Source: a virus
Lineage: Duplodnaviria > Caudoviricetes
Direction: 5' to 3' (one strand)
Length of the DNA stretch: 64,000 bases
Virus record (IMG/VR): IMGVR_UViG_3300014204_000114
Span: 64,001-128,000 of that record
Below, piece by piece: positions 45,979-62,209 of this stretch. The notes below the pieces were generated by a model. It saw only the letters and a list, made by a program, of their open reading frames with translations. It was not told the DNA's origin and ran no database searches. Position numbers and translations under genes: made by a program. Within the stretch, counting starts at the first letter, position 1. The number at the start of each line of letters is the position of its first letter.

Positions 45979-47079
45979 ATGTCTAAGAAAAAAGAAAAAG
46001 CACAAGAAGCGCCTAAGGTATTAGACAATAGGTCTGATGCGGAGAGAGCGTTCGATATAATTACTCAGAAGCACGGCGCTGGATCCATATTCAGAATGGG
46101 CGTATGCGAATCCCTGAATATAGAAGTTGTTTCTACTGGAGATCCATTGCTTGATTGTTTATTAGGCATATGGGGTTTGCCATACGGAAGAATAGTAGAA
46201 TTTTATGGGAAAGAACAGTCCGGGAAAACAACATTGTTATTACAAACAATAGCTAACGCCCAGAAACAAAAGAAATTGTGTGCAGTAGTCGACGCTGAGC
46301 ATGCGCTAGATATAGGTTATGCCAAGTCTTTAGGCGTAGACGTAAATAATCTTTTATTATCCCAGCCTGATAATGGCGAACAGGCTCTCACTATAGTAGA
46401 AGATTTGATCAGAGCTGGGGCTAAAGTAGTAGCTGTTGATTCTGTAGCAGCTCTAACTCCAAAAGCAGAAATCGAAGGTGAAATAGGGGACAGTCATGTT
46501 GGGCTTCAGGCGAGAATGATGTCTCAGGCTATGAGGAAGCTTACTGCTTTAGTAGATAATAGTAAAACGCTATTAATTTTTACCAATCAATTAAGATCTA
46601 CCATCATGAGTTATAGTGGACCGACTACTACCGGAGGAAACGCCCTCAAATATTATGCTTCTATAAGATTAGATATGAGAGCTTTAGGAGACGCTAGTTC
46701 TATAAAGGTAGAAGAGAAAAGAATAGGCGGAAAGTTTGCAGTAAAAGTAGTTAAGAATAAATTGTCCACTCCATTTAAAGAGGGCGAATTAACTATCATA
46801 TACGGTAAAGGCTTTTCTAAAGGTTACGATCTTATAGAATTAGGATTAATATCCAACGTTGTGGGGAAAAGCGGGAGCTGGTTTTCGTATAAAGGAGAGA
46901 GACTGGGACAAGGACAATATAACGCCTCATTATTTATAGAAAGCAACCCTGAATTATACGAAAAAATATACGCAGAAGCTAAACAAACTTTTAAATCCGA
47001 AATAATACCTAACGTGGAATTGAAAGAGGAAGAGGAAGAAATTGGAGATAGCACTAAAGAGCCTGAATCAGTCGATTAA
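45979..47079 (+). CDS. recA: Recombinase RecA
   Basis: GKEQSGKTT, DAEHALD, SQPDNGEQAL, DSVAAL, GLQARMMSQAMRK, GGNALKYYAS. Confidence 0.97.
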   Translation: MSKKKEKAQEAPKVLDNRSDAERAFDIITQKHGAGSIFRMGVCESLNIEVVSTGDPLLDCLLGIWGLPYGRIVEFYGKEQSGKTTLLLQTIANAQKQKKLCAVVDAEHALDIGYAKSLGVDVNNLLLSQPDNGEQALTIVEDLIRAGAKVVAVDSVAALTPKAEIEGEIGDSHVGLQARMMSQAMRKLTALVDNSKTLLIFTNQLRSTIMSYSGPTTTGGNALKYYASIRLDMRALGDASSIKVEEKRIGGKFAVKVVKNKLSTPFKEGELTIIYGKGFSKGYDLIELGLISNVVGKSGSWFSYKGERLGQGQYNASLFIESNPELYEKIYAEAKQTFKSEIIPNVELKEEEEEIGDSTKEPESVD

Positions 47080-47662
47080 ATCCTGTGAAGAATGTAAGGA
47101 CATAAGAAAATATACATTCAACTGTGTACTCTCTAAAGGAGATCCTCAAGCTCCTACAATGATTATAGGAGAAGCCCCGGGCAGAGAAGAGACTGAACAG
47201 GGGATTCCTTTTGTAGGTATGGCAGGGAAGATATTAAATGAGGCTCTGGATTTATGCGCCGAGGCCAATATACATTATAATCTCTACATTACGAATGCTG
47301 TGAAGTGTCGTCCGACAATAGAAGGAAAGAAGAACAGGCCTCCTACATGTGACGAGATAGTAAACTGTAATGTGTTTCTTATGAGAGAGATAAACATCTT
47401 AAGGCCCAGACATATAATCCTTTTAGGAGCGACGGCATATAAAGCCATTACGGATAATCCTGAGAGCTATACTCCTATAACTAAGTTGGTTAATGAGGGA
47501 TGCAGAGTGCCTCAAGAAAATATTTCAGAAAGAATCAGATGTTCATCCAAAGTATATGTAACGTATCATCCCGCCGCGACTATATATAATACAGGGACAA
47601 AAAAAGCTTTTCTAAATAGCATAGTTAGAATTTTGAGGAAGTGTGATGGAACTGTTGTTTGA
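47042..47662 (+). CDS. Uracil-DNA glycosylase, family 4
   Basis: CEEC, GEAPG..E..QGIPFVG, NAVKCRP, TYHPA. Confidence 0.92.
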   Translation: MEIALKSLNQSIKSCEECKDIRKYTFNCVLSKGDPQAPTMIIGEAPGREETEQGIPFVGMAGKILNEALDLCAEANIHYNLYITNAVKCRPTIEGKKNRPPTCDEIVNCNVFLMREINILRPRHIILLGATAYKAITDNPESYTPITKLVNEGCRVPQENISERIRCSSKVYVTYHPAATIYNTGTKKAFLNSIVRILRKCDGTVV

Positions 47663-48507
47663 TAGTAGTAACGATAGAGCTAAACTTGATTTTGAAAATA
47701 TGAAAAATGAAATGGCTCAATATATAAACTCTATCGATTTAGAACAAGGGAAGTGTCATGGATGGAATATCTTTGGGAGCGATGTATCTACACGATTTAT
47801 CGTGTATACTTATATTTTCGAGCGTGATTACATCGACAATACAGATTACAATGATCTATACGATATAGAAGACGATTTCATGGAAACTTGGTTCGAGATT
47901 TGCGAAGCTGAATCTTTAGCCGAGTACGGATGGGAAAGGAATAGAATGTTTTATGCGATCTTTGCGCTGCCCGAAAACTGGCAAGACATTATTAAGAAAA
48001 AATACTTCTAACGATAACTAGCTTACGAGGATGATATGACTATACCTTTAAGAGATTTATACGAAGTTAGTTTCATAGATCGTGATTATAAAGAATTATA
48101 TCTTCTTGACGTGTGGGCTCTTGACGCATACGAAGCTGCCATGAAAGCTTTGTACTGGAATGATGACGATAATAGTCTGAATATAGATGGGCACAAGAAA
48201 AAACTCGATGAGATTCATGTTGTTTTAAAAACTAAAGGTTGCGAAGAATGGACATTTTTTAAAGTTGTCCGCCATAAAAGAAAGAATCTGAATTATACTC
48301 CGATGAATAACTACTATACGATAAGAGAGATCGAACGATGAAAAACTGCCCAAAAAGAATAAGAAAGCAGAAGGAAAGAGAAGAGGGGTATTACAAATTG
48401 CCTATGGGTCCATGTATGTGGTTCTTATATCGATTCTCATATCCAGGGACATGCGTCAAAGCGGACGGATCATTGCAGTGTCCTACAAACGGTCATGTAT
48501 GTAAGGA

Positions 48508-49425
48508 TTGCCCTTGTTTATAAATTTACATCTGCATAGTCAGTACTCCGTATTCGATGGCACTATCGAAATAGATAAGCTCGCGGAGTATCTTAAAGAT
48601 AAAGCCCCGGGGTGTGCCATTACAGACCATGGGGTAATGCATGGATGCGTTAAGTTTTATAAGATATTTAAGAAAGCAGGACTGAAACCTATCCTGGGTT
48701 CAGAAATGTACATTACTTCCGTGGATAAAGGAACGCCGTATGATAAGATCCCTAATAAACAATCAGCTAAAGAAGAAAGAGGTATAGCAAAAGAGAGATA
48801 TCATATAATTCTATTAGCAAAGAACAACGAAGGCTATTCAAACTTATGTAGGATAGTTTCGGAGGGACATCTCCGCGGGTATTATTACAAACCAAGAATA
48901 GATCTGGAAGTCCTTAAGAAATATAAAGAAGGGATAGTAGTAACCTCAGCATGTATATTCGGAGAAGTCTCTAACTTACTTATTAAATCAGTAACCGAAC
49001 AAGAGGGAGAGTATTATTTAAAAGCTAAGGAAGTAACCAAGAAGTTCCTGGATATATTCGGGGACGATTATTACTTAGAAGTACAGGATAACGGAGCTAA
49101 GGAGCAATATATAGCCAATCCATTGATCTCTCAATTGGGTGAAGAATTAAGCATACCTATTGTGGCTACTTCGGATTCTCATTATCTTAAAAAAGAAGAT
49201 ATTAAGACGTTCGCATTAGGAATGAAGATGCAAACTTATGATTCCGCGAAGAAGAAATCCTCATACGAAGTAGATATGAATATGAAATTATGGGTCAAGA
49301 CAGAAGAAGATTTTATATCTGAACTGAGTATAAAAAAAGAGTACTGCGATAATACAGAGCTGGTTTTTAATAAATGTAATGTGTCTCTACCGCTAGGGAC
49401 GTTGAAGTTTCCGGAGGTTGCATGA
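48508..49425 (+). CDS. dnaE: DNA polymerase III alpha fragment 1 (PHP domain)
   Basis: LHLHSQYS..DG, TDHG, KPILGSE, H.ILLAKN..GY.NL, YYKPRID, SAC, YYLEVQ, TSDSHY; ends at LKFP. Confidence 0.9.
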   Translation: MPLFINLHLHSQYSVFDGTIEIDKLAEYLKDKAPGCAITDHGVMHGCVKFYKIFKKAGLKPILGSEMYITSVDKGTPYDKIPNKQSAKEERGIAKERYHIILLAKNNEGYSNLCRIVSEGHLRGYYYKPRIDLEVLKKYKEGIVVTSACIFGEVSNLLIKSVTEQEGEYYLKAKEVTKKFLDIFGDDYYLEVQDNGAKEQYIANPLISQLGEELSIPIVATSDSHYLKKEDIKTFALGMKMQTYDSAKKKSSYEVDMNMKLWVKTEEDFISELSIKKEYCDNTELVFNKCNVSLPLGTLKFPEVA

Positions 49426-49910
49426 ATAAAACAATATGGACTCAGCCTGGGAATAAAACTCATATAGGCAAAATCCTTATAAAAGAGCATGAAGAAAATA
49501 ATCGTAAAGCTTATACTATGATAGTTAGAGGAAAATTACTTAAGAAGTGCTGGAGATTTCCATTTACTTATATTCATACAGGTAACTTAGTAGAACCAAT
49601 ACGTTTATACTTTCAAGTTATAGCTAAGGCTCCTAACTCTACTATGATACTAACTCAAAGTATATGTATGCCGGGAGCAGAGGATCTTAGAGAAGAGCAT
49701 AGCTTTAATGATATTATAGATGCTATTAATAAAGGTCTTATACATAAGGTATTTTTAAAAGCTACACTAAATGATCTAGCTACTAGTGCCCTTGAGGTTT
49801 CAGACCCTAATCTGCAGCAGAATAAGAACTATTATCTTCTAGAGGAACTAAAGAAGACAAGCGCTAGTCAATCCGTACTTACTTCTATCGAGGAGAGTGG
49901 GAGAATATGA
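49422..49910 (+). CDS. Hypothetical protein between dnaE fragments
   Basis: ATGA overlaps at both ends. Confidence 0.6.
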   Translation: MNKTIWTQPGNKTHIGKILIKEHEENNRKAYTMIVRGKLLKKCWRFPFTYIHTGNLVEPIRLYFQVIAKAPNSTMILTQSICMPGAEDLREEHSFNDIIDAINKGLIHKVFLKATLNDLATSALEVSDPNLQQNKNYYLLEELKKTSASQSVLTSIEESGRI

Positions 49911-50095
49911 GTTTTAGAGTAACAGACGAATGTATTAATTGCGGTATGTGCGAGGCTGATTGCCCCGTAGAGGCTATAACTTCTGACGGAGGGAAGTGTA
50001 GTATAGACCCAACCAAATGCGTTGAGTGTAAATATTTCTACGAAGAACCTCAGTGTGTGTCTAATTGTCCTGTAGGAGCCCACGAAAAGGTATGA
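49907..50095 (+). CDS. 2x[4Fe-4S] ferredoxin
   Basis: [12 protein letters not shown] and [12 protein letters not shown]. Confidence 0.92.
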
Positions 50096-50871
50096 GCGTA
50101 GAGACATTCAAAAAGAAAGTTGAAGAAGGATTTGCCAAAAAGATCTTAACCAAAGGATTCTCCCGGGAGATTAAAGATAAGTACCGTAAACAGCTTGATT
50201 ATGAGATAGAGATCATAACTAGGATGGGGTTTGCGGATTACTTTTTAATACTTCAAGACATGATCGGCTGGGCTAAAGGTGAGAATATACTTATAGGTCC
50301 TGGAAGAGGATGTTTACATCCAAGCGTATTTATCAGGACTCTCAAAGGGTTAATAAAAATCAAGAATATAAGAGTAGGAGACGAAGTATTATCTGATGAT
50401 AACAAGTATCATAAAGTATTAAAAGTATTCAGTTATGAAGTCGAAGAAGACTTAGTACAGATCAATACTTATAAGAAGATGACCGACCAGTTATTTACTA
50501 AAGATCACAAGATATTATGTATCAAAGACAAGAAAGCCAGAACTTGGATTAAAGCTAAAGATATATCCGCGGGGGACTTCCTGATAAGACCGCCAAGTAC
50601 GCTTCTAAAAGTTCGCTCTACAAGTATACTAGAGGGATATAGAGGTTTAGTCCATGATCTACAAGTAGAAAAGACTGCTAATTTCTGTACCGAAGGATTT
50701 ATAGTACATAACTCTGCTAGCGGAAGTTTAATTACATACGTATTAGGGATAACGACGATTGATCCTTTGAAATACAATTTGATTTTTGAACGTTTTCTTA
50801 ATCCAGGAAGACATTGGAGATATAAGATGGACTTCCCGGAGTTAACTTATCAGCAGTTCAAGGAGATATGA
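50092..50871 (+). CDS. dnaE: DNA polymerase III alpha fragment 2 (start of palm domain) with mini-intein
   Basis: [22 protein letters not shown]|S.SGSL..YVLGIT.IDP....[10 protein letters not shown]. Confidence 0.9.
50311..50712 (+). mobile_element. Mini-intein (134 aa) in the DnaE GRG|S motif
   Basis: CLHPS...TKDHK...VHDLQVE..ANF...IVHN|S. Confidence 0.9.
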
Positions 50872-51102
50872 TGGAGACTGTTGTATACATAGGCCGCGAC
50901 GGAGAATTCGATAAGAATATAAAAAGAATAGCCGATGCTTTAGAAGAACAGAATAGAATAAATATAATGAATTTATTCTTGCGTATGCTAGAACGTACCG
51001 GATGTAATACGTATGACGTTCTTGAAGGTAGAGATAAGACTATAACTGGTCTTCTTAAAAATTTGAGTAAAATATCTGAAAAACTAAAAGAAGAATTAGA
51101 AC

Positions 51103-51131
51103 TTGACATGAGACAAGAATAAGAATATTAT
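51103..51131 (+). promoter_or_regulatory. sigma70 promoter for the tRNA cluster
   Basis: TTGACA-N17-TATTAT. Confidence 0.7.
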
Positions 51132-51169
51132 AAGACATAAGGAGAAATCCTTAATTAAATATTTTTAAT

Positions 51170-51258
51170 GCCGAGATATCCAAGCTGGCTAAAGGAATCA
51201 GACTGTAGATCTGACAGGCTTTGTCCTTTCGGGGATTCAAATTCTCCTCTCGGCACCA
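51170..51258 (+). tRNA. tRNA-Tyr(GTA)
   Basis: gccgaga/tctcggc acceptor stem, tcaga-ctGTAga-tctga anticodon arm, long variable arm, encoded CCA. Confidence 0.88.
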
Positions 51259-51269
51259 GAAATTATTGA

Positions 51270-51345
51270 GCCTACGTATCTCAACTGATAGAGAGCCGCA
51301 CCTGTACTGCGGATGTTAGGGGTTTGAGACCTCTCGTAGGCTCCA
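51270..51345 (+). tRNA. tRNA-Thr(TGT)
   Basis: gcctacg/cgtaggc acceptor stem, ccgca-ccTGTac-tgcgg, encoded CCA; atypical C33. Confidence 0.75.
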
Positions 51346-51349
51346 GTAT

Positions 51350-51422
51350 TCCCGGGTCGCTCAATTGGTAGGGCACGCGGTTACTCATCGCGAGGTTGTA
51401 GGTTCAAATCCTGCCCCGGGAG
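51350..51422 (+). tRNA. tRNA of uncertain identity (nominal anticodon ACT)
   Basis: tcccggg/cccggga acceptor, D arm gctc/gggc, T arm gtagg-ttcaaat-cctgc, loop ttACTca; no encoded CCA. Confidence 0.65.
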
Positions 51423-51453
51423 CACTGCCAATTTTATCTGTAAAGGAAAAGAA

Positions 51454-52076
51454 GATGCACACTACGATAGTAAAAATGAAAGATGGAAGAGAATTTAGAG
51501 GAGCCTTATGGACCTTTAGGCCTCTTGAAGGATGGTTCAATGTCACAGAAGAGGGTTCTCCCGAAAAAATATACTTCAAAGATTGCGAAAGCGTTATTAC
51601 TTTAGGGCAAAGGATTCATCCCGGAGTTACAGAAAATCAGGACGAAATAGAACGAGCAAAAGAAAACTTGCCTCAATTGGTACGCGACGAGCAATACGAT
51701 AAAGGGATTACAGATCCTAAGAAATTAGAAGAGAGGGCCAAAGAAATAATCAAGGAGCTGTACTAAAATGCAAAACATATATTTAATAGGCAAGAGTTTT
51801 CAAGGAGTTAAGTCTATAGACGAATTTGACTATAAGATAATCAATAAGTCCGGGAGACATGCTATTAAAGGTAAGGCTAAGATAACGAAATATACCGGAG
51901 AATACGAAGAGCCCATAGAAGAAGGAATGGAATCCAACATATCTATATGGACGAAGAATAATAAGGAAGTCACAGTCACGACTTTTTACGGCGCAGAAAT
52001 AACAAAAGTTAAGGGGAATGTATTATGGTTCGACATAAGAGCTATGATACCAATACAAGAAAGATTGACTTGTTAA
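51454..52076 (+). CDS. Two hypothetical proteins (about 51455-51766, 51768-52076)
   Basis: First likely starts at MHTTIV after AAGGA SD. Confidence 0.55.
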
Positions 52077-52093
52077 AGTAAAGAAGTTATACT
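52065..52093 (+). promoter_or_regulatory. sigma70 promoter; predicted +1 coincides with ATG 52100
   Basis: TTGACT-N17-TATACT. Confidence 0.8.
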
Positions 52094-52099
52094 ACAGAT

Positions 52100-52141
52100 A
52101 TGAAGATAGAATTCAGCTAGATTCAACGTGCCCCGCCTTGA
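52100..52141 (+). promoter_or_regulatory. Leaderless uORF MKIEFS-(TAG)-IQRAPP-(TGA), candidate arrest-peptide attenuator
   Basis: atg aag ata gaa ttc agc TAG att caa cgt gcc ccg cct TGA; followed by ttctccttg (52142-52150), complementary to taaggagaa SD (52190-52198). Confidence 0.65.
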
Positions 52142-52203
52142 TTCTCCTTGGCATGGAATTGGTTTATAGTAATGATTTGAACAATAAAATAAGGAGAAAA
52201 CAT

Positions 52204-52590
52204 ATGCATCCATATACAGAAAAGAAATTAGAACTTAAAGAAATAGCCAAGAAAATAGTAGTCCTAAAATTCCAACGTAAACCTAACAATAATACTTCAG
52301 GCAAAACACAAAGCGAAATTATTGACACTCTCTTCGACTCTAAACTCGAATACAGGATGAAGCATATTATTTACTGTTTGGCCAGAGGTCGTACGATGGA
52401 ACAGATAGAGAATAAAGTTAGCAAATCTAATAAGTTAGATAAGTATAAGTTATCACATATTGATGGGGCCTTCAAAGTTCTAAAGAAAGAAGCAGCCGAA
52501 TACGAAACTAAGTTGTTAGCAGAACGAAAAGATAAGAAAGAGAAAAGGAATGAAACTGTACGTAGTAACGAGGCGAGACTTACTGCCTAG
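52204..52590 (+). CDS. Basic hypothetical protein with R..H..Y.L.RGR..EQIE motif
   Basis: AAGGAG SD, ATG 52204; overlaps the Pth2-like gene. Confidence 0.75.
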   Translation: MHPYTEKKLELKEIAKKIVVLKFQRKPNNNTSGKTQSEIIDTLFDSKLEYRMKHIIYCLARGRTMEQIENKVSKSNKLDKYKLSHIDGAFKVLKKEAAEYETKLLAERKDKKEKRNETVRSNEARLTA

Positions 52591-52834
52591 TCAACAGGTG
52601 GTTCAAGTCGCTCACGTAGTAGCTAAATATATGCTAGAGAATCCAGGAGAGTGGAATAACGAGACTCTCGTGATTTATGGTGTAAGTAATGAGGTTGAAT
52701 TAGAATCTATATTAAATTCTCTTAAGAAGAGATATGTAAATCATTCCGAATCCAGAGAGCCTGACATGGGCTTGTCTCTAACGGGGATAGCAAGTACGAG
52801 CAGAAATGTTTTTAATAAGTTAAAACTGCTCTAG
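52550..52834 (+). CDS. Peptidyl-tRNA hydrolase 2 (Pth2)-like protein
   Basis: KLYVVTRRDL...Q..VQVAH, W...TLVI, EPD....LT.IA. Confidence 0.8.
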   Translation: MKLYVVTRRDLLPSQQVVQVAHVVAKYMLENPGEWNNETLVIYGVSNEVELESILNSLKKRYVNHSESREPDMGLSLTGIASTSRNVFNKLKLL

Positions 52835-52903
52835 TCGCTCAAATAGATAGGGCAAACGTCTCTAAAACGTAGTATGTTGGTTAGAGTCCAACCTATGGCA
52901 CCA
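52828..52903 (+). tRNA. Amber suppressor-type tRNA (anticodon CTA)
   Basis: 76 nt; acceptor gctctag/ctatggc (one G-U, one mismatch), D arm gctc/gggc, acgt-ctCTAaa-acgt, T arm gttgg-ttagagt-ccaac, A73, encoded CCA. Confidence 0.75.
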
Positions 52904-53130
52904 AATTTTATAAGGAGAAATAAATTGGAAGAACAAAAGAAAGAAACAACTGAAGAATCAAAAGGGTTTAAATCTCTTATCGGGTTACTACTGACCGTAG
53001 CTGTATTTATATCTCTGATATACTTGCCTACAGCAGTAGTAAAGATTGTAGATTTTCAGAAACATAATTCGCCGACTGAAGTTACGATGACTATCGGAGT
53101 AACAGAAACGACAAAGTAAAAGGAGTTAAT

Positions 53131-53751
53131 ATGCCCAGAGGAAAAGTAAAAGAAAAAGTATTAAAGCTGTCAGATTTTACAGAATTTGGTATGCCCGATC
53201 CTATTTATAGAGCTAAGTTTATCGAGGGGGGCATAGAGATAGACTGGGGTATGCTCGGCGATTTACATGAACAGTACCGGGTATTCTTCTATACTAATAA
53301 TAAGGATACGAATCTACTTTTATTCTCCTTAAAAGGGAATAAAAAGGGTCAAGTGCAGGGATTTGAGATAGAAGCAGCTTCAGGTAAGGCTCCATATTAT
53401 ATCCATTGCGATTCATTTTTTAGAGTTGCAAAGTTCCCAATAGAAAAATATAAAAACAAATACTACAGAGTTTCAAATATTAAGCTTGACGGCGTTAGCT
53501 TATTTAAGATCGATTTGTCTATCGAAGTGACCGAAGCAGGATGGGAAGCATCCATAGTAAAAGGTCCTATTCGTAAATCACGTAAAGGAATAAAGCTTGG
53601 ACCCAGAAAGAAACCCGAGATTGAAGCTGTTCAGGAAAAGCCTCAAGAAAAGCCTGCTTATAGGAAATTAGATCTTGGAGATCAAAGACCTGCGGTGCCG
53701 CAATTCTCTAAAGCAATGGGCGAAAAAGTATTAAAATCATTCACAGAGTGA
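53131..53751 (+). CDS. Hypothetical protein
   Basis: AAGGAG SD. Confidence 0.65.
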   Translation: MPRGKVKEKVLKLSDFTEFGMPDPIYRAKFIEGGIEIDWGMLGDLHEQYRVFFYTNNKDTNLLLFSLKGNKKGQVQGFEIEAASGKAPYYIHCDSFFRVAKFPIEKYKNKYYRVSNIKLDGVSLFKIDLSIEVTEAGWEASIVKGPIRKSRKGIKLGPRKKPEIEAVQEKPQEKPAYRKLDLGDQRPAVPQFSKAMGEKVLKSFTE

Positions 53752-54485
53752 GGGATAATATGCCAGTAGAAAAAGTAAAATTAGAAGACATAAGAGAAAA
53801 GTATATCTCAGGCATGAATATGCGAGAAATAGGGAGTTACTACGGCGTGACATATCAGGCCGTTGCGGACAGATTAAAAAGGGCAGGAGTCCCACGAAGA
53901 GGAAGAGGAGCTCCTGTGTCCAAAGAAAGGATTAAAGCTGAGAGTCTGCTGAATGATGACCTTTTAAGGTACTTAAAGCATGACCTTAAGCTTACAAATA
54001 AACAAATCGCCGAAAGAATAAAAGTACCCGCTCAAACAGTTGGAAGTATAGCAGTAAAAAGAGGCATCCTTTATGAGCCTTCTAAAGAAGATAAGTACCA
54101 CATAGCCAGACCTAATGGGGTTAAACAAATATTTAATACTCCCGCTAAACAGGAAAAGCTTAAAGCGGACATTAAGAAGTACTATTACGAATTAGGTTTG
54201 TCTGTAAACGATACTGCAGAGAAAGTAGGCGTAAGCTGGCGGACAGTACTTCGCTGGATGAATTACTGGAACATGGAAAGAAGAAGCCGGAATATGATCT
54301 TCCCTTATCTAGATAAGGCTCAGAAGCAAGAGCTTAAAGCCAATATTAAAAGGATGTATCTGAAAGAAAGAATGACTACTTTTGAAGTGGCTGAAAAATT
54401 AAATACTACTGCTAGTACTATCGGCAGATGGATGGATATATTCGGAATTAAAAAGAGAGGTAACAGAAAGAGAGCTATCAAGTGA
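53748..54485 (+). CDS. Multi-HTH DNA-binding protein
   Basis: Four repeats of Y.....S..EIA..G.S..TV..W....GI.RR type. Confidence 0.7.
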   Translation: MRDNMPVEKVKLEDIREKYISGMNMREIGSYYGVTYQAVADRLKRAGVPRRGRGAPVSKERIKAESLLNDDLLRYLKHDLKLTNKQIAERIKVPAQTVGSIAVKRGILYEPSKEDKYHIARPNGVKQIFNTPAKQEKLKADIKKYYYELGLSVNDTAEKVGVSWRTVLRWMNYWNMERRSRNMIFPYLDKAQKQELKANIKRMYLKERMTTFEVAEKLNTTASTIGRWMDIFGIKKRGNRKRAIK

Positions 54486-55828
54486 GTACTAAAATTAACT
54501 GGCGACAAGTTAAGGATATCGAAGAGCTTAAGAAGCTAGCTACTGATGCCGAAGGGTATGATGTAGACTATGCTATTATGCTTGTCCATGGAGCGTATTC
54601 CAGAAAAGGAGTTCAGTACGAGCCGGAAGAAAATCTATTTTGGGTCTACAACCATATAGACGATTCAGAACAACTTCTGACTGAAGAGCAACTCTTCGAT
54701 ACGGACTATACAAACGTAGGAGACGCTATAAAGAAAGGTCATTTCTTCGTAGACTCCGACCAGATAAACTGGGAGATAGGATGAAAGTTAAAAAGCTTAT
54801 TGAATTAATAAAAGACTATCCAGATCATGTAATTGTTATAGGAGCTTGCGACTGGAATTCCAAAGTCTCTAATTTCTCAACAGGCTATATAGTTAAAGGA
54901 GACGATGGCATTTCCGAATTCTGCGATGCTTGGGATTACCAAGAAAATAAGCTAATGCAAGCTTCTAAAATAAAAAAAGCTTTAGTGCTTTGGCCGGAGG
55001 ATTAATGAAACCCAATCTAGAACATCACGGAGATATGACTTTAAATCTTGATTATTGGGATTGTGAATGTGAGTTCGGCTATATCCATGCTATAGATGTG
55101 GATTATTGCCCTATATGCGGAGCTCATAGAGAAGATCAACCCAATTCAAGAGCTGAAGAAGTTGAACATTTAATAAAGTGTGGTTAAAATGGCTGATAAT
55201 TATTTACAATTCTCAGAAGCTTTCGATATCGAACACCCTGAAATTCTTAAAGATATTATAGAAAAATACGAAAAAGAATTAGAAGAAGATGATGACGGAT
55301 ATGATAATGTCATACAATTCGAATACGAGTTCGACGAGAAGAGAAAAACCTTTTGGGCTCATGCTGATGAATGTGGCGAGCCTAGTCATTTAGCAGAAGT
55401 ATTACATAGGTATTTAAAAGAGACGAACTCAGATACGGTATTTTCTTTTGAATATGCATACACCTGTTCTAAGATGCGATGTGGAGAGTTTGGTGGTGCG
55501 GCCATAGCCATAAGCAGAAAGAAAATACTATGGTCTGAATCTTCTCTCCAATTAGTCGAGAAATTAAAAAAGCAATTAAAATGTAAGAGGACCAAGAATG
55601 CCTAGATATTTGGTAGAAGTACCTGAGATATGGATAAAGCATTACTTTGTAGACGATGCCAAGGACGAAGACGATGCTATAGATAAGGTCGACATAGGAG
55701 ATTGTCACGAATTGAATGGCGATGACGACTTTTATATGCAGCGTGTCGAAGATAAAGAAGAGTGGATAGCCACCAAAATTACGTTAAAACCAATCGGAAA
55801 ACCAAAAAGAGATGGTGAAACTCTCTAA
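54482..55828 (+). CDS. Five small acidic hypothetical proteins
   Basis: ORF track, overlapping start/stop codons. Confidence 0.55.
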
Positions 55829-58663
55829 ATGCACAGCTACTTCTCAGAAAAAGCTAGTAAGATTATAGGATGGATAGACTTTGATAGATTAATTGAGCTG
55901 GAGAATCAAGATGAGTTCTATATAGAACTGGATAACTATGATTTCCACGATAAGTTCTCCGGAGAAAGATTTCTAGATTATTTAATCTATCTTAAAGTCA
56001 AGGATATTAAAGTCTCCAATCCTAATAATTCTTGTGTAGCATGGGTTACAGGCGTTACTGACGATAAGCCTGTAGCTTTGCCTGAAAGGGAGATTGGGTC
56101 CTTGCCTGACGTAGATATAGACGTATCGAAGGATCACAGGCAGGATGTTATAGATTATCTTGTATCCAAATATGGCAAGGATAATGTAGCGCCTATAGCC
56201 ACCTTCAATTCATTTGCCCTCAAATCAGCTATAAGGGCCGTAGCGAGGACTTTGGAATACCCCTATGAGATAGGCGATAAGCTATCAAAGATGTCTCCTG
56301 ACCCCGTGCAGGGCAAAAATCTGACATTTTTAGAAGCTCTTGAGGAAGTTCCTGAGCTTAAACGGATATACGAAGAAGGTGGAGAGGGGTTTAATGGCGA
56401 CGCCCAAAAAATATTAAAGGAAGTAAAGCTAATAGAAGGTATTATATCTTCTGTTGGTACGCATGCTTCCGGAGTAGTTATTTCTCCGTTTACATTAACC
56501 GATCTATTACCTCTACAGCTTAATAATAAAGATATGACTGTCGTCCAGTACGATATGGAGGATGTAGAGGCTTTAGGATTAGTAAAGTTTGATATATTGG
56601 GGATTAAAACTTTAACTACGTTAAAGATGTGCGCGGATTTTATAAAAGAAAGATTCAATATCACTATAGATTTTGAGAATATACCTTTGGATGATCCTAA
56701 TGTTTACAAGATGATATGCGAGGGATTCCTCTTAGGAATATTCCAGCTTGAAACTTCTTCCGGCATGAGACAAATAGTAAAACAGATACAGCCTAAATGC
56801 ATAGAAGATCTATCAGATATATTAGCTATATATAGACCTGGTCCTCTGGGTAGTTCCGAGCTTAAGAATTATTTAGAATGTAAGACTACAGGCAAGGAAC
56901 CAAAGTATGCCCACCCTGCATTAGAACCTATCCTTAAACCGACTTCCGGATTGATGCTTTATCAAGAGCAAATTATGAGAATAGCCAGGGATATATGTGG
57001 GTACACAATGGTCGAGGGCGATTCTCTGAGAAAATGTGTGTCTGGAGATACTTTATTCTGGACTCAAGATGGCTATAAACACATAAAAGATATGGTGCGT
57101 AATAGAAAAAGAAATACTGCTCGTACTTTAACGAATTATGAAATCGTGGATAATAAAATTGATAATGCTTTTAAGTCGGGGATAAAGGACACTATAAAAA
57201 TAATTACAGAAAGCAGATCTGAGATAATATGTACTCCGGATCATGAGATATTTACTAATGAAGGATATATTCAAGCCAAAGACTTAACTAGAGCTCATTA
57301 TTTATTACACGATATTACTGAAAAGTATGGCACGTACGACATAGACGAAGATTTATTGTTTTTAATAGCGGCTCTCGTTACAGAAGGACATACTGGTAAA
57401 AACGCTTGGTATTTTTGTAATAAAGATAAAATTTACATAGATAAATTCATAGATGCATTTTACAATATTTTCAAATACATTCCTAAGACACATATAGGCG
57501 GAAATGATGTTATTTATGTTCAAATAAAAGCTGACGCCAGTAAATATTTAACAGATAATTTCCCATCAATAGTCGGCACTAGCGCTTTTAAGTCTTTACC
57601 GTTTGATTTTCTTAATTTAGTACAAGAGAAACATCTCAAATTGCTAAGCTGGATGATAGATTTTGATGGATGGGCAGATGATAGACACATAGCTTACTGT
57701 ACTAAATCAATTAAACTAGCAGCACAAGTTAAATTACTATTTGAAAATATAGGTTGCGGGGCTTATATACTTAATAAAAAAGTTAAAGGATACGGTATAT
57801 TTTATAATGTGCATATTGGAGATAGACAAGATATCTTAAGAGCTAAAAATAAATTAATATATTCAGAGAAAATATCCTCTAAAAACTTTTCTACTACCAG
57901 AGACGCTAAAAGAAATTATGTATCTAAGTATACTATACCTTCTAATATATACAAACCTATTATTGATTCTATAATAAAACAGTCTGGATATAGCAGAAAT
58001 GAATTAGTAGGAAAAAATATATCTGGTTCTTATTTTTCCGGGCCATTAGGTATAGATAGACTGTCTGATATTTTGTCGGTTTGCGGGCGCTCGAAAGAAT
58101 TAGAATTTTATTTAAATAGAGAGGTTTATTGGGATAAAATTCGATCGATAACTCCAAATGGGGAGATCGATGTGTATGACTTTAGTATGACAGAAAGATC
58201 TAGTCCTCGTGCATTTGCTAATAACATACTTATACATAATTGCGTAGGAAAGAAAAAAGCAGAGGAGTTATTAAAACACGAGGAAAAGTTCGTATCTGGC
58301 GGAATTAGATTGGGTTTTCCAGAGAAAATGCTCAGAGATTTATTTAACAATATCAAGAGCTTTGGGGCGTATGGATTCAATAAATGTCTAACTGGGGACA
58401 CTAAAGTAAAAACTCCAGACGGTATAAAGGCTATCGAAAGCTTAAAAGTCCCATGTACTTTGTTATCGATGGACGCTAATAACAATATTATCGAAAATGA
58501 GTGTGTCGAAAAAATAGATTGCGGAGAACAAGACGTATATGAAATTGAATTTAGCGATAGCTGTATCATAAAATGTACCCTAGATCATAAGTTCATGTGT
58601 GGTGATAATAAAATGCATAGCGTGAGGGATATTATAAAAGATGACTTGACAGTTCTAGCTTAG
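55829..58663 (+). CDS. dnaE: DNA polymerase III alpha fragment 3 (catalytic palm/thumb/fingers) with LAGLIDADG intein and N-half of a split intein
   Basis: SLPDVDID, HASGVVI, GLVKFDILG, GIFQLE, YRPGP, YQEQIM, LRK|..|CVGKKK, AYGFNK|CLTGDT. Confidence 0.93.
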   Translation: MHSYFSEKASKIIGWIDFDRLIELENQDEFYIELDNYDFHDKFSGERFLDYLIYLKVKDIKVSNPNNSCVAWVTGVTDDKPVALPEREIGSLPDVDIDVSKDHRQDVIDYLVSKYGKDNVAPIATFNSFALKSAIRAVARTLEYPYEIGDKLSKMSPDPVQGKNLTFLEALEEVPELKRIYEEGGEGFNGDAQKILKEVKLIEGIISSVGTHASGVVISPFTLTDLLPLQLNNKDMTVVQYDMEDVEALGLVKFDILGIKTLTTLKMCADFIKERFNITIDFENIPLDDPNVYKMICEGFLLGIFQLETSSGMRQIVKQIQPKCIEDLSDILAIYRPGPLGSSELKNYLECKTTGKEPKYAHPALEPILKPTSGLMLYQEQIMRIARDICGYTMVEGDSLRKCVSGDTLFWTQDGYKHIKDMVRNRKRNTARTLTNYEIVDNKIDNAFKSGIKDTIKIITESRSEIICTPDHEIFTNEGYIQAKDLTRAHYLLHDITEKYGTYDIDEDLLFLIAALVTEGHTGKNAWYFCNKDKIYIDKFIDAFYNIFKYIPKTHIGGNDVIYVQIKADASKYLTDNFPSIVGTSAFKSLPFDFLNLVQEKHLKLLSWMIDFDGWADDRHIAYCTKSIKLAAQVKLLFENIGCGAYILNKKVKGYGIFYNVHIGDRQDILRAKNKLIYSEKISSKNFSTTRDAKRNYVSKYTIPSNIYKPIIDSIIKQSGYSRNELVGKNISGSYFSGPLGIDRLSDILSVCGRSKELEFYLNREVYWDKIRSITPNGEIDVYDFSMTERSSPRAFANNILIHNCVGKKKAEELLKHEEKFVSGGIRLGFPEKMLRDLFNNIKSFGAYGFNKCLTGDTKVKTPDGIKAIESLKVPCTLLSMDANNNIIENECVEKIDCGEQDVYEIEFSDSCIIKCTLDHKFMCGDNKMHSVRDIIKDDLTVLA
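57035..58240 (+). mobile_element. Intein (402 aa) with LAGLIDADG endonuclease domain
   Basis: CVSGDT...CTPDHEI...LIAALVTEG...WMIDFDG...VYDFSM...LIHN|C. Confidence 0.92.
58385..58660 (+). other. Split intein N-part (92 aa)
   Basis: CLTGDTKV...VYEIEF...IKCTLDHKFM then stop; acidic. Confidence 0.9.
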
Positions 58664-58700
58664 GAGTCTATAATCATATAAGAGGCATAGGAGGCCTTTT
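58646..58700 (+). promoter_or_regulatory. Consensus promoter plus RBS hairpin for the homing endonuclease gene
   Basis: TTGACA-N17-TATAAT (58646-58674); aagaggc-ataggag-gcctttt hairpin enclosing the SD (58680-58700). Confidence 0.75.
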
Positions 58701-58702
58701 AT

Positions 58703-59596
58703 ATGGAACAAACGAACACAATGAGACGTAGGCGTAATTTTTCTCCACCTAACAAAACAATTACAGACGACGATAAAAGATTTATGGTAGAACAGTACGT
58801 AACACATAAAAAATCAGCTAACGAAATATTAAAGATGTTTAACGGAAAGTTTAAAACTACTAAAACTGTTTATGACGTTCTAAAACAATTCGATATTAAA
58901 GGAAGAGAATTACAAGACTATATTAATATAGACCACCTATTCTTTTCAGAAATAAACACTTCAGCCAAAGCCTACATATTAGGCTTATTTATAACAGATG
59001 GTTGGGTAATATCTGATAAAGGGGCGTTCGGGATCCAATTAACAATGGAAGACGAGAATATAATCAAAATGATTAGAAAAGAACTTAAATCAGATACGAG
59101 TTTAGTAACATGTTATAAAAAACCATTCGAAGGTGCTAACGGAAATATATATCAACCTAAAGATATGATAAGATTCTTCGCCCATTCTAAGCAAATTGTT
59201 AACGATCTGTCTAGGTACGGCGTAATCAACAATAAGAGCGACAAGACGTTACTGCCTCTGATTGGCCCAAATTTTATGCCACATATGTTAAGAGGTATTT
59301 TAGACGGAGACGGCAGCGTGTATATACATGCTCAATCGAATAATCTATGTATTAGATTTATAGGAACGAGAGTCCTAGTAGCCCAAATCTCAATGTTTTT
59401 AGCCTTAGCATTAGGCGTAAAATATAACTATCCTAATATACGAACTAAACAAAAAGAGACATATATGGATATTTGTTATGTAGATTGGGAGAGTAAAGAA
59501 GAGGTCGAAAAAATAATAAGATATATATATAAGGACTCGGACGAAGACCATAGGATAAGAAGAAAATATGAGAAAGCTAAAGATTATATCATATAA
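58703..59596 (+). CDS. Free-standing LAGLIDADG homing endonuclease between the split-intein halves
   Basis: AYILGLFITDG and LRGILDGDG motifs. Confidence 0.9.
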   Translation: MEQTNTMRRRRNFSPPNKTITDDDKRFMVEQYVTHKKSANEILKMFNGKFKTTKTVYDVLKQFDIKGRELQDYINIDHLFFSEINTSAKAYILGLFITDGWVISDKGAFGIQLTMEDENIIKMIRKELKSDTSLVTCYKKPFEGANGNIYQPKDMIRFFAHSKQIVNDLSRYGVINNKSDKTLLPLIGPNFMPHMLRGILDGDGSVYIHAQSNNLCIRFIGTRVLVAQISMFLALALGVKYNYPNIRTKQKETYMDICYVDWESKEEVEKIIRYIYKDSDEDHRIRRKYEKAKDYII

Positions 59597-60932
59597 AAAG
59601 GTAGGTACAAAAAAGACTTACAATCTTCGTATGATTAAGAAGCCACATAACTATATATTGGCTAATGGATTAGTTTCTGCTAACTCGCATAGCATTTCAT
59701 ATAGTTATATAACATACTTCACGTCTTACATGAAGTGTTATTACCCTACTGATTTTATGGCATCGTTATTATCTAATGAAGATAATCCTGATATGTTTAA
59801 GCAGTATCTTAGAGAATGTTCTGATTTAGGGTTAAAGATAATGCCGCCGGATATAAATGAATCCGATAGAGGGTTTAGACCTGCAGGGGATGATTCGAAT
59901 CCGGTTATCTATTTTGGTTTAAATGGTATTACAGGTATAGGATCTAAAGTCGTAGATGAGATATTGTTAGCCAGAGAATCCGGTCCTTTTATGAATATTA
60001 AAGATTTTGTTTCAAGAGTTAATACCAGAGTAGTTAATAAAGGCAAGAGAGAACTACTAGCCAAAATAGGCTGCTTTGATAAGTTTAATGTTAATAGAAG
60101 GGCTGTTGCTGAACAGCTAGAGGACTTAGTTGATTATGCGGCAAGAACAAGAACTTATAATGCCGCGCTGGATAAGTATCATGCTTATGTAGACAAGAGA
60201 AGAGAAGAAGGGAAAGATATAACAAAGGTCCCGCCTGCTAAACCTGTGTTCGAAAAGACTTATTCTCATGTGGAAAATTATATAGAGAAAGAGCTATGTG
60301 ATTTTGAAAGAGATTTCTTGGGGGCATACGTAACCAATCACCCGTTGATTAAGATAAGACAATTCAAGGGAGACTCTCAATATGTCATTTCGGACTTAAA
60401 GGATGACTATTATGTGGACCAGCCGATTCATCTCTACTGTATGGTAGAAGACGCCCGAAAGATAAAGACTAAGAATGGAACCAACATGGCGTTCCTGAAA
60501 ATCATAGACGAGTTTGATAGTATAGAATGCGTAGTGTTCCCTAAAGTGTATGAAGTATCTAAAAGTGTATTGGTAGATCCATATCTATCCGGCGCGTATT
60601 TTATCGAGGGAATGCTTCGACCTAACTATCAAGACAGATCTGTAATGAATGTTATAGCTAATAAGATAATGCCTATAGAAAGCAGTGAAGGATTAAGGCA
60701 TAACTATAAATTAATTCTTAAGCCTAATAAGACATTCCATAAGCTTCTTAAGATGAAACCTCTTCTAAAACGCCACAGAGCTTATGAGAATAACCTTAAT
60801 ATGATATCTCTTAAGATAGGCGACATCGAATTTGAATTCCGTAACTCAAGACAGTTCGAAGAAACAGGAAAGATCAGAGCTCTATTAAGAGAGAACGGCA
60901 TTGATGGAAATCTAGTATTGGAAAAACGTTAG
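59568..60932 (+). CDS. dnaE: DNA polymerase III alpha fragment 4 (C-half of split intein + HhH/OB-fold C-terminus)
   Basis: MRKLKIISYKKVG..TYNL...HNYILANGLVSAN|SHS.SYS...Y.K.YYP.DF, PPDINES, FGL..I.GIG, ER..LG.Y...HPL, MAF. Confidence 0.92.
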   Translation: MRKLKIISYKKVGTKKTYNLRMIKKPHNYILANGLVSANSHSISYSYITYFTSYMKCYYPTDFMASLLSNEDNPDMFKQYLRECSDLGLKIMPPDINESDRGFRPAGDDSNPVIYFGLNGITGIGSKVVDEILLARESGPFMNIKDFVSRVNTRVVNKGKRELLAKIGCFDKFNVNRRAVAEQLEDLVDYAARTRTYNAALDKYHAYVDKRREEGKDITKVPPAKPVFEKTYSHVENYIEKELCDFERDFLGAYVTNHPLIKIRQFKGDSQYVISDLKDDYYVDQPIHLYCMVEDARKIKTKNGTNMAFLKIIDEFDSIECVVFPKVYEVSKSVLVDPYLSGAYFIEGMLRPNYQDRSVMNVIANKIMPIESSEGLRHNYKLILKPNKTFHKLLKMKPLLKRHRAYENNLNMISLKIGDIEFEFRNSRQFEETGKIRALLRENGIDGNLVLEKR

Positions 60933-61144
60933 AATAATCAACTAGATTTTATTTATTTTATTTTTCGGAGATAAGATGGAGATCCAGACAAAGGTCCTAT
61001 ACCTGATAGGATTCATTTTATTATTATCTTTACTAATAGGAATGGCAGTTCTTTGCGTTCTGGTTAAGATAATAATCTATTTGGTAAGCAATTTTGGAAT
61101 TTTTTTGTTGATTTTGTTTTTACTGTATTGTATAATACGGGATA

Positions 61145-61966
61145 ATGGAAAGGGAGATAGCAATGGAGATATACAAGACGAATAAGATTTCTCTGTCGGG
61201 CAATCGCAAAGTAGATCCGAACACGCTAGATATTTCTAAGGGATGTATAGGCGCTCAAAAGAGAGAGAATGGATGTTATAACGCCTGTTACGCCTGTAAG
61301 ATGTCCAAGTTAGCCAACAAAGATTTCTCCGTTCCCGTCCCGCAGATATTAGACGAAAGTCTATTACGTAAACAGCTTAAAACTCTAAAGCAAAACTGGG
61401 TTAGGATAGGAGTCTCCGGAGACCCATCTTCGGATTGGGATACTACAGTTAAAGTGTGTCAGATAGTCAGAGAGTCAGGGAGAACCCCGGTAGTCAAAAC
61501 TAAATGCTGGACAGAACCAGAACAGATACATCTTAAGCAAATGGCTGTTTCTAATACCATCTTCCAAGTCTCTATGTCAGCACTAGATGATGAGGACGAA
61601 AGCAAACGAAGATCCAAAGCCTTGGCTTCTTACAGAGACCTCCTGCCAGGCTATTCTGTTCCTATGGTAAACTCGCTTGCGTTTAAGCCCGGAGAATTAC
61701 ACACCAGACAAGCTACTGATTCTGAATTACTTTTAAAGTTCTGCGGGAGTATCTTAGAAGTTCCAATAAGACTGTTTAAGACTAACCCTATATGGAAAGA
61801 GCTTGACGAGTCAAAATATCATCATCACGAATCAGTCATAAGTGGTAAGGAAGATTCCCAGTATACAGCCGGACTGGTAATAAATCTTACCGGCGTCTAT
61901 CCATGTAATACTAAATGTAGTGAATGCGAGAACCAATGTATGGTCAATGTGTTGGAGAAAAAGTAA
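61145..61966 (+). CDS. Radical-SAM-like Fe-S protein
   Basis: KGC...GCYNACYAC cluster, VRIG.SGDP, C-terminal C...C..C...C. Confidence 0.55.
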   Translation: MEREIAMEIYKTNKISLSGNRKVDPNTLDISKGCIGAQKRENGCYNACYACKMSKLANKDFSVPVPQILDESLLRKQLKTLKQNWVRIGVSGDPSSDWDTTVKVCQIVRESGRTPVVKTKCWTEPEQIHLKQMAVSNTIFQVSMSALDDEDESKRRSKALASYRDLLPGYSVPMVNSLAFKPGELHTRQATDSELLLKFCGSILEVPIRLFKTNPIWKELDESKYHHHESVISGKEDSQYTAGLVINLTGVYPCNTKCSECENQCMVNVLEKK

Positions 61967-62209
61967 CATGGTCCCTTACGGCTCTACTAAAAAAGACCCT
62001 TTGAAATTAGATAAAGTGGATCTTGAAACTTTATATAATAATTTTAAAGAGGGTTTGTTTGATACGCAGATTAAGGATTACGAATATATAATTGCTTCAA
62101 GACAATTAGTTGATACTACAGATGCTATCGGAAGATACGCTAATCACTTCGGTAATGACAACCAGATAATGGTTTGTACTGGATTGCAGTTTTCTAAGAA
62201 GGAGGACTA

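Follow-up and report, generated by a model that had tools for sequence, protein, structure and literature searches.

A DnaE-type polymerase encoded in four genes

The DNA analysed here (the window, a stretch of 64,000 nucleotides) corresponds to bases 64001-128000 of IMGVR_UViG_3300014204_000114, a 187,794-bp IMG/VR record of an uncultured landfill phage, which is estimated to be 99% complete. Four collinear open reading frames (ORFs) on its + strand, which we call F1 (48508-49425), F2 (50092-50871), F3 (55829-58663) and F4 (59568-60932), together encode a DNA polymerase III alpha subunit (DnaE). This four-gene DnaE is the only recognisable DNA polymerase of the phage; no family A or family B polymerase, no second DnaE and no other PHP match were found in the 99%-complete genome. 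The gaps between the consecutive pieces are referred to below as breaks 1, 2 and 3.

We consider it probable that the four genes give rise to a three-chain enzyme, the phage's own replicative C-family (DnaE-type) polymerase. A mini-intein would be excised in cis from F2, leaving a 125-residue chain with the triphosphate-binding GS loop, and a LAGLIDADG intein would likewise be excised in cis from F3. F3 and F4 would then be joined in trans by a split intein into an 865-residue core containing the DxD metal site, the fingers and the HhH region, and F1 would remain a separate 305-residue PHP subunit, likely a proofreader. The three chains would dock non-covalently, and the catalytic centre would be built from two polypeptides, with the GS loop supplied by F2 and the aspartates by the core. 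This model, with its two cis-splicing events, one trans-splicing event and non-covalent docking, had been put forward in a first-pass annotation of the same DNA, and it is supported by conservation, by co-occurrence of the pieces and by one complex prediction for an orthologous pair. The anatomy and collinearity of the genes, their conservation and co-occurrence, and the independent assemblies are observed, whereas splicing, docking and activity are inferred.

F1 is a stand-alone PHP subunit of the proofreading type (305 residues; Pfam PHP, E 1.8e-46). Its best match of solved structure is the PHP domain of Taq Pol III alpha (2hpi_A of entry 2HPI, E 2.9e-43), and all nine metal-ligand positions (HxH, D, TDHG, E, H, C and DxH) are present in the alignment to it. 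F2 is a palm-start fragment with the GPGRGS loop and the FERFLNPGR motif, in which a Hint domain is flanked by matches to Pfam DNA_pol3_alpha (positions 3-70 and 66-99). It starts at ATG 50092, where an independent gene call gives the same 259-residue product, with a TTG at 50065 also open, and it consists of the palm start up to GPGRG, the 134-residue Hint domain (from C to HN), the continuation S-ASGSL...FERFLNPGR and a 19-residue tail. Its exteins (50092-50310 and 50713-50868) show 73% identity to a Moorella phage DnaE over 411-443.

F3 is the gene for the polymerase core, with matches to DNA_pol3_alpha positions 69-260, to the finger domain (PF17657, E 1.9e-48) and to Hint. It comprises a 90-residue N-terminal region (residues 1-90, the N..NS module discussed below), the DVDIDV strand, the rest of the palm, the fingers, an intein, 48 extein residues ending in GFNK and the N half of a split intein, the exteins being 55829-57034 and 58241-58384. 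The DVDIDV motif and Asp255 are conserved, and DVDIDV and the KFD motif are invariant in our alignment A3. An AlphaFold2 model of F3 residues 1-413, built from 28 sequences, has a mean predicted local distance difference test score (pLDDT) of 87.6 and superposes on Pol III alpha 3e0d_A with a Z-score of 15.0 and a root-mean-square deviation of 6.9 over 313 aligned residues. The C-extein of F4 (59685-60932, + strand) supplies the end of the fingers, the HhH region (HHH_6, PF14579, E 4.6e-25) and an OB-like C-terminal region, and matches phrog_405 positions 794-1059; the OB-fold match itself is weak (E 0.0019, below the cut-off).

F2 and F3 jointly cover DNA_pol3_alpha positions 3-260. The enzyme has the hallmarks of the DnaE type, namely a PHP domain with its ligands, a Pol-beta-like palm with GS loop, DxD and third Asp, fingers and HhH, the OB fold being weak, and the catalytic motifs are intact, as the first-pass annotation had stated. 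What it lacks is the single continuous polypeptide of that type: there are four ORFs and, from the analysis of extein boundaries, three predicted mature chains of 305, 125 and 865 residues.

Three inteins and the fractured gene at break 3

The exteins are interrupted by three inteins, all of which retain Cys1, the TxxH block, the terminal Asn and the +1 nucleophile (splice points are marked by a slash). The first is a 134-residue mini-intein (50311-50712, F2 residues 74-207, + strand; Pfam Intein_splicing and PT-HINT), inserted at GPGRG/S with boundaries C...HN/S; the F2-like fragment of another phage, L073, carries a 132-residue intein at the same GPGRG/S site. The second is a 402-residue cis intein with a LAGLIDADG-type insert (57035-58240, F3 residues 403-804, + strand; Intein_splicing, E 1.3e-20), located at LRK/C, the boundaries of which are confirmed by a gapless alignment of the exteins to P0243, an unsplit relative.

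The third intein is split between F3 and F4. Its N half occupies the C-terminus of F3 (92 residues, 853-944; 58385-58660, + strand), contains the CLTGD... start and a TLDH block, and matches the N half of the Npu DnaE intein (4lx3_A) in a phmmer search with E 1.3e-10. Its C half forms residues 1-39 of F4 (59568-59684, + strand), ends in SAN before an extein that begins with SHS, and can be aligned over its whole length to the C half of the Npu intein (4lx3_B). The similarity of both halves identifies this split intein as a homologue of the cyanobacterial DnaE intein, a relationship that the first-pass annotation had missed. That annotation had placed split-intein halves at break 3 only, which agrees with the absence of any Hint signal in Pfam at the F1 C-terminus, at both F2 termini and at the F3 N-terminus. 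The broken ends align to unsplit relatives, leaving no space for intein halves.

Between the two halves lies a free-standing LAGLIDADG homing endonuclease gene (58703-59596, + strand, 297 residues; LAGLIDADG_3, E 1.4e-10, and phrog_4645, E 2.6e-41). Break 3 has the layout of a fractured gene, with the N half ending the upstream gene, the C half starting the downstream gene and a homing endonuclease gene in between, which the first-pass annotation had likewise not noted. A perfect 12/12 sigma-70-like promoter, TTGACA-17-TATAAT (58646-58674), overlaps the last codons of F3 and is followed by AGGAGG and the start of the endonuclease gene, which could thus be transcribed from a promoter of its own within the polymerase operon.

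A duplicated palm start in split and unsplit relatives

At first, F3 residues 50-90 resemble a degenerate second copy of the region supplied by F2, and the tail of F2 resembles a decayed DxD strand. Unsplit relatives account for both features. P0215, P0243, P0253, P0260 and others (~1100-1170 residues) have every element in one chain, in the order PHP, canonical palm start (GPGRGS, FERFLNPGR), F2-like tail motif, linker, N..NS module and DxD core. On P0243, F1 aligns to residues 5-312, the F2 exteins to 344-453 and the joined F3 and F4 exteins to 492-1046, with no loss and no overlap, which bears out the earlier claim that the four pieces are collinear and together make up a full DnaE. No gap occurs at the extein junctions, and the F2/F3 junction corresponds to the insert linker of the unsplit proteins. 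We therefore rejected the idea that the fracture itself had created overlapping degenerate copies, since the unsplit relatives have the same module and the same tail motif.

The consensus of the module is K..N..NS..AY..GITDE.P...GG..PDIDxDF, with Asn64 and Ser68 invariant in alignments of 28-39 sequences. With a 3-sequence profile, 107 cluster representatives are matched at E<=1e-10, and most of them are cores 750-850 residues long. Alone, the module has no significant Pfam match (best E 0.16), and its homology to the canonical palm start became visible in profile-profile comparison (hhalign probability 92.9%, E 3.6e-7); it lacks the GPGRG loop and the FERFLNP helix. These comparisons indicate that the palm start is internally duplicated in this subfamily and that the gene of the window phage is cut between the two copies. 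Break 2 thereby lies, on the same alignments, inside a lineage-specific duplicated module that is also found in unsplit relatives, which the first-pass annotation had not noticed.

Two further single ORFs, of 1114 and 1280 residues (G003:C1:1253-2383 and G021:C1:51688-52932), show two successive matches to the start of DNA_pol3_alpha (positions 2-103, then 3/10-260), and by this pattern they are read as one-chain forms with a tandem palm start.

A word-indexed search with F3 residues 1-95 returned the query itself only, a related-locus search with the 3-sequence module alignment returned seven loci, mostly canonical DnaE, and tblastn of the module N-terminus against cultured phages gave weak matches to canonical DnaE only. 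The DNA pattern NPNNS...G[IV]TD had 0 matches in IMG/VR, and the looser NS..AY..GITD was rejected as a marker of the module, as most of its 68 loci are one-piece DnaE proteins of ~915 residues.

The two breaks without inteins are shared with other phages

Break 1 contains a 162-residue ORF (49422-49910, + strand) with no Pfam or PHROG match, and a 62-residue 4Fe-4S ferredoxin-like ORF (49907-50095, + strand; Pfam Fer4, E 1.4e-8), which is the hypothetical gene and ferredoxin reported by the first-pass annotation. The first ORF has ATGA overlaps at both ends and the second overlaps the F2 start in the same way, so that the four genes from F1 to F2 are chained by three ATGA overlaps. The proteins most closely related to the F3 core (~45% identity) are 870-890 residues long, lack PHP and start at the same position as F2; in those of their contigs that could be read, a separate PHP gene of ~290 residues precedes the core, with one to three small genes in between. 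The synteny RecA...PHP...core...Metallophos is common to the relatives with a separate PHP gene. The 162-residue ORF is not homologous to the break-1 genes of these relatives; because the gap genes differ between phages and are non-homologous, we regard the break-1 gap as an insertion hotspot and not as the place of a conserved subunit. By these comparisons, a large phage clade has break 1 as its general state, and the break is old rather than a recent accident.

The break-2 position is split in at least seven other phage contigs, three of which have orthologous LAGLIDADG genes in the gap. In L060 the order is a partial PHP, six genes, a 131-residue fragment, a LAGLIDADG gene and an 842-residue core, and in L072 it is PHP, two genes, a 136-residue fragment, a LAGLIDADG gene and a core with an intein. 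L073 has the intein-bearing fragment mentioned above, two genes and the core. L064 and L067 have a PHP-fragment fusion, an endonuclease gene and the core, which in L067 is itself in two pieces, and G027 and G028 show a two-gene form, the PHP-fragment fusion followed by the core. L060, L064 and L072 have orthologous LAGLIDADG genes (42-44% identity), which are distantly related to the break-3 endonuclease of the window. All six of six fragments keep GPGRGS and FERFLNP and share the tail motif I-x-[TF]-[SP]-[KE]-[ILF]-[ST]-[FY]-x-x-F, and an F2-like fragment stands beside the core in 8 of the 9 contexts with enough upstream sequence. Equivalent pieces are conserved at ~30-45% identity in distant phages. 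Both intein-less breaks are, from these loci, old and widespread and not specific to the window phage, a point that had also been missed.

Homing endonuclease genes repeatedly occupy the break-2 point in the insert linker. More broadly, we see about an even chance that these proteins represent a large undescribed subfamily of full-sized phage DnaE with a duplicate palm start between the GS loop and DxD, which would have become obligate heteromers in many lineages, with the catalytic centre divided over two or three chains and the module acting as the docking surface by which the gene came to tolerate endonuclease cuts.

Further split DnaE genes were noted. A separate large DnaE group in IMG/VR (L030-L056, e.g. 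L032:8696-12955) is split in the palm/thumb, at about F3 residues 175-190, with the ORFs 0.7-0.9 kb apart. In the cultured Rossellomorea phage phiT1 (PV767480.1, L003:3002-6284) DnaE is annotated as two genes with a 50-residue ORF between them, and from this two-gene DnaE it follows that intein-less split DnaE occurs in isolates too. L059 was rejected as a relevant relative, as it is a bacterial long-read contig with a frameshifted dnaE.

Content and strain variation of break 2

Break 2 of the window (50872-55828, + strand) is a strain-variable block 4957 nt in length. It holds four tRNAs and ~13 small ORFs, hardly any of which belongs to a family, in line with the ~5 kb, four tRNAs and more than ten genes described earlier. 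The tRNAs are at 51170-51258, 51270-51345, 51350-51423 and 52828-52903. The window has no recognisable endonuclease gene in break 1 or break 2, such as the gap endonuclease that characterises Aeh1 nrdA. A 245-residue protein with multiple helix-turn-helix motifs (53748-54485) is similar to those parts of phage HNH endonucleases that bind DNA (phrog_8446, E 7e-28) and has no nuclease domain; it may be the relic of a break-2 endonuclease gene.

Near-identical strains differ by insertions and deletions within break 2. The tRNA at 52828-52903 has a CTA anticodon (reading TAG; labelled Pyl by ARAGORN) and lies with two small ORFs in an 836-bp segment (52076-52911), which is missing, with 5 letters in its place, in contigs of three other runs and in L057. 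Recoding of stop codons was considered and rejected, as reading TAG or TGA as sense gains no long ORFs and TAG ends 20 of 109 ORFs. The tRNA at 51350-51423, a tRNA-Ser with an unusual ACT anticodon, belongs to a three-tRNA cluster, ahead of which there is a near-consensus sigma-70-like promoter (11/12, 51103-51131). The window and L057 agree at every position for 7.2 kb; 17 differences follow within the final 250 nt of F2, and the insertions and deletions of break 2 come after these. The F2 end (50620-50876, intein C-terminus and C-extein) is thus a sharp recombination boundary, before which both L057 and L058 are identical to the window for more than 7 kb and at which both differ from it in these 17 positions.

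Independent assemblies and joining at the RNA level

The sequencing runs with near-identical DNA come from landfill and groundwater metagenomes. The independent contigs L057 and L058 are 99.6-99.8% identical to the window from RecA through the F2 end, and F1 is identical in both. A contig of run X2 covers 47738-50490 with zero differences, and in run X3 a 4581-bp contig (98.7% identical) covers 55727-60307, reaching from the beginning of F3 across both inteins and the endonuclease gene into the beginning of F4. Break 1 and the DNA from the start of F3 as far as F4 are in this way bridged by contigs of other studies, at 98.7-100% identity. An assembly artefact, one of the objections raised with the first-pass annotation, is excluded because independent contigs carry the same arrangement across the junctions. 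No allele free of inteins or of the endonuclease gene was seen in the compared contigs, which drop rare variants and so give no proof of absence.

The other objection was joining at the RNA level. Group I introns are known to reside in polymerase genes of phages, which counts in favour of closure of the breaks by group I or II introns or by trans-splicing. A permissive Rfam scan of 47000-62000 found no intron, the only matches being the four tRNAs; the gaps are packed with ORFs overlapping by ATGA; and the fragment ends align with unsplit relatives, while the same starts and stops recur in other phages. No RNA dataset is listed among the sequencing runs with near-identical DNA. Taking RNA-level joining and assembly artefacts together, we hold an explanation of this kind to be extremely improbable.

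Purifying selection and predicted docking

The strain comparison with run X3 considers the best-supported 40 of 245 differences. Among these, the 34 nucleotide differences in F3 give 9 residue changes, five of them in the N-terminal module and outside its invariant positions, and all four differences in the F2 C-extein are synonymous; F1 and F2 have no internal stops. Purifying selection between strains, the lack of which the first-pass annotation had named as a refutation, is supported.

A defunct polymerase, with the pieces as pseudogene remnants and the phage using the host replisome, could be suspected from a gene in four pieces with 5 kb of unrelated genes inside. We judge this to be very unlikely, as all pieces are open and their catalytic motifs intact, the same pieces persist in distant phages at the identities given above, and the strain differences are mostly synonymous. 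The dnaE neighbourhood is, moreover, a complete replication and nucleotide-metabolism module, with a class II ribonucleotide reductase containing an intein, RecA, UDG and, downstream, a Metallophos nuclease.

Docking was examined by complex prediction for an orthologous intein-free pair, the L060 fragment and the core P0054, which reached a score of 0.78, the best of 3 controls scoring 0.00. The benchmark mark for this score is reached by 51 of 78 solved complexes and by 2 of 108 mismatched pairs. At least 78% of the contacts are common to the runs, and the partner pLDDT is at least 74. The predicted interface would bring fragment residues 41-102 (the helix preceding the GS loop, the GS loop and the FERFLNP helix) to the DxD strand and the next helix of the core, and would also take in core residues 228-259, 347-377 and 425-435. 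The P0054 module (residues 1-72) and the tail of the L060 fragment are placed without confidence.

Several observations weigh against the three-chain reading. The docking run used an orthologous pair and not the window phage's own chains, and the pass may stem from likeness to, or memory of, solved single-chain DnaE structures. The match of the split-intein C half to 4lx3_B (residues 4-39 to 2-36) is weak by E-value, at 0.11 for a short query, and the putative exonuclease activity of F1 is deduced only from conserved ligands. When the F3 model is superposed on Pol III alpha with VIA-align, the match usually sets in at residue 88 and gives no position for the module. The module itself is helical and folded confidently (pLDDT ~80-96 over residues 10-80), and the core might dispense with F2. 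Finally, for the L063 core there is no fragment or PHP gene within 5 kb upstream, on a contig of 8.7 kb.

The last of these points lead to an alternative in which the trans-spliced F3-F4 core is self-sufficient through its N..NS module, F1 and F2 being accessory proteins or slowly decaying ancestral leftovers. It draws on the homology of this conserved and well-folded module to the palm start, on L063, and on the many cores of ~780-850 residues that exist. The module, however, has neither the GPGRGS loop nor the FERFLNP helix, and unsplit relatives retain the canonical palm start alongside the module within a single chain. F2-like fragments with both motifs invariant accompany the core in all but one of the contexts that could be read, the F2 intein is intact in the most conserved loop at a site common with L073, and F1 and F2 remain free of stops, with the F2 C-extein changes considered here all synonymous. 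We regard self-sufficiency of the core as unlikely, and retain the three-chain enzyme as the probable reading.

Relation to known split polymerases

In the fractured genes that Dassa et al. 2009 (PMC2677866) describe from environmental phages, among them three DnaE loci, a homing endonuclease gene stands alone between split intein halves. Break 3 has exactly this arrangement, with an N half, a LAGLIDADG gene with a promoter-like site and ribosome-binding site, and a C half on one strand; in contrast to them, the dnaE of the window also has two cis inteins and two intein-less breaks. The Ssp/Npu DnaE split intein belongs to the split DnaE of cyanobacteria (Wu et al. 1998; Caspi et al. 2003, as cited in PMC2677866). 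The window shares with this system the host protein, the region and a homologous intein, and in both the C half lacks the penultimate His, ending in ASN or SAN. The window intein sits four residues downstream of the cyanobacterial site (GFNK/S versus Y/CFNK) and has a +1 Ser in place of Cys. In cyanobacteria the gene is broken only once, and its halves occupy separate loci without an endonuclease gene in between; the arrangement in the window differs on each of these counts.

Genes cut into pieces without inteins by homing endonuclease genes include Aeh1 nrdA (mobE) and the split gp43 of Aeromonas phages (Edgell and Karam groups, as cited in PMC2677866). As in these cases, breaks 1 and 2 give collinear fragments free of Hint that need non-covalent association, and relatives L060, L064 and L072 have their orthologous LAGLIDADG gene exactly in break 2, as in the Aeh1 nrdA type. 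Break 2 of the window differs in having grown to 5 kb with tRNAs, and in cutting between two active-site motifs of a C-family polymerase. Group 2.2 jumbo phages have been described with a 'minimal' Pol III alpha that is split into an N-terminal protein binding nucleoside triphosphates and a C-terminal protein binding Mg and template; this enzyme is without PHP and the other DnaE domains and stands beside a family B polymerase (Iyer et al. 2021, PMC7824862). By that paper's description, its boundary coincides with break 2, between FERFLNPGR and the DxD strand. Unlike that enzyme, the one described here is full-sized (PHP, fingers, HhH), is the sole polymerase and has the duplicated palm-start insert. 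Among the papers searched, none deals with a full-sized DnaE subfamily that bears the insert, or with its three-chain form. The dnaE of the window combines known kinds of splitting, and is extreme in the number of events per gene rather than new in principle.

If the chains assemble, this would be a natural C-family replicase with the nucleotide-binding loop and the metal aspartates on different polypeptides and with a detachable PHP proofreader, a system for probing DnaE palm contacts and the coupling of proofreading to synthesis. The locus also illustrates that an essential gene can be retained through five selfish-element events, comprising three inteins, one or more fractures associated with an endonuclease, and an insertion hotspot that keeps growing. 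The Npu-like natural split intein, with its +1 Ser and shifted site, and the GS-loop mini-intein may serve in protein ligation. There is also a warning for annotation, in that PHROG-style 'DNA polymerase' families hide fragments that would work only jointly.

Other features of the window

Nearly all genes of the window are on the + strand. A megablast search of 48000-61000 against cultured phages gave zero matches. The class II-type ribonucleotide reductase gene of the replication module (43214-45583, 789 residues) contains its intein at about residues 270-450, which makes it the fourth intein in this module.

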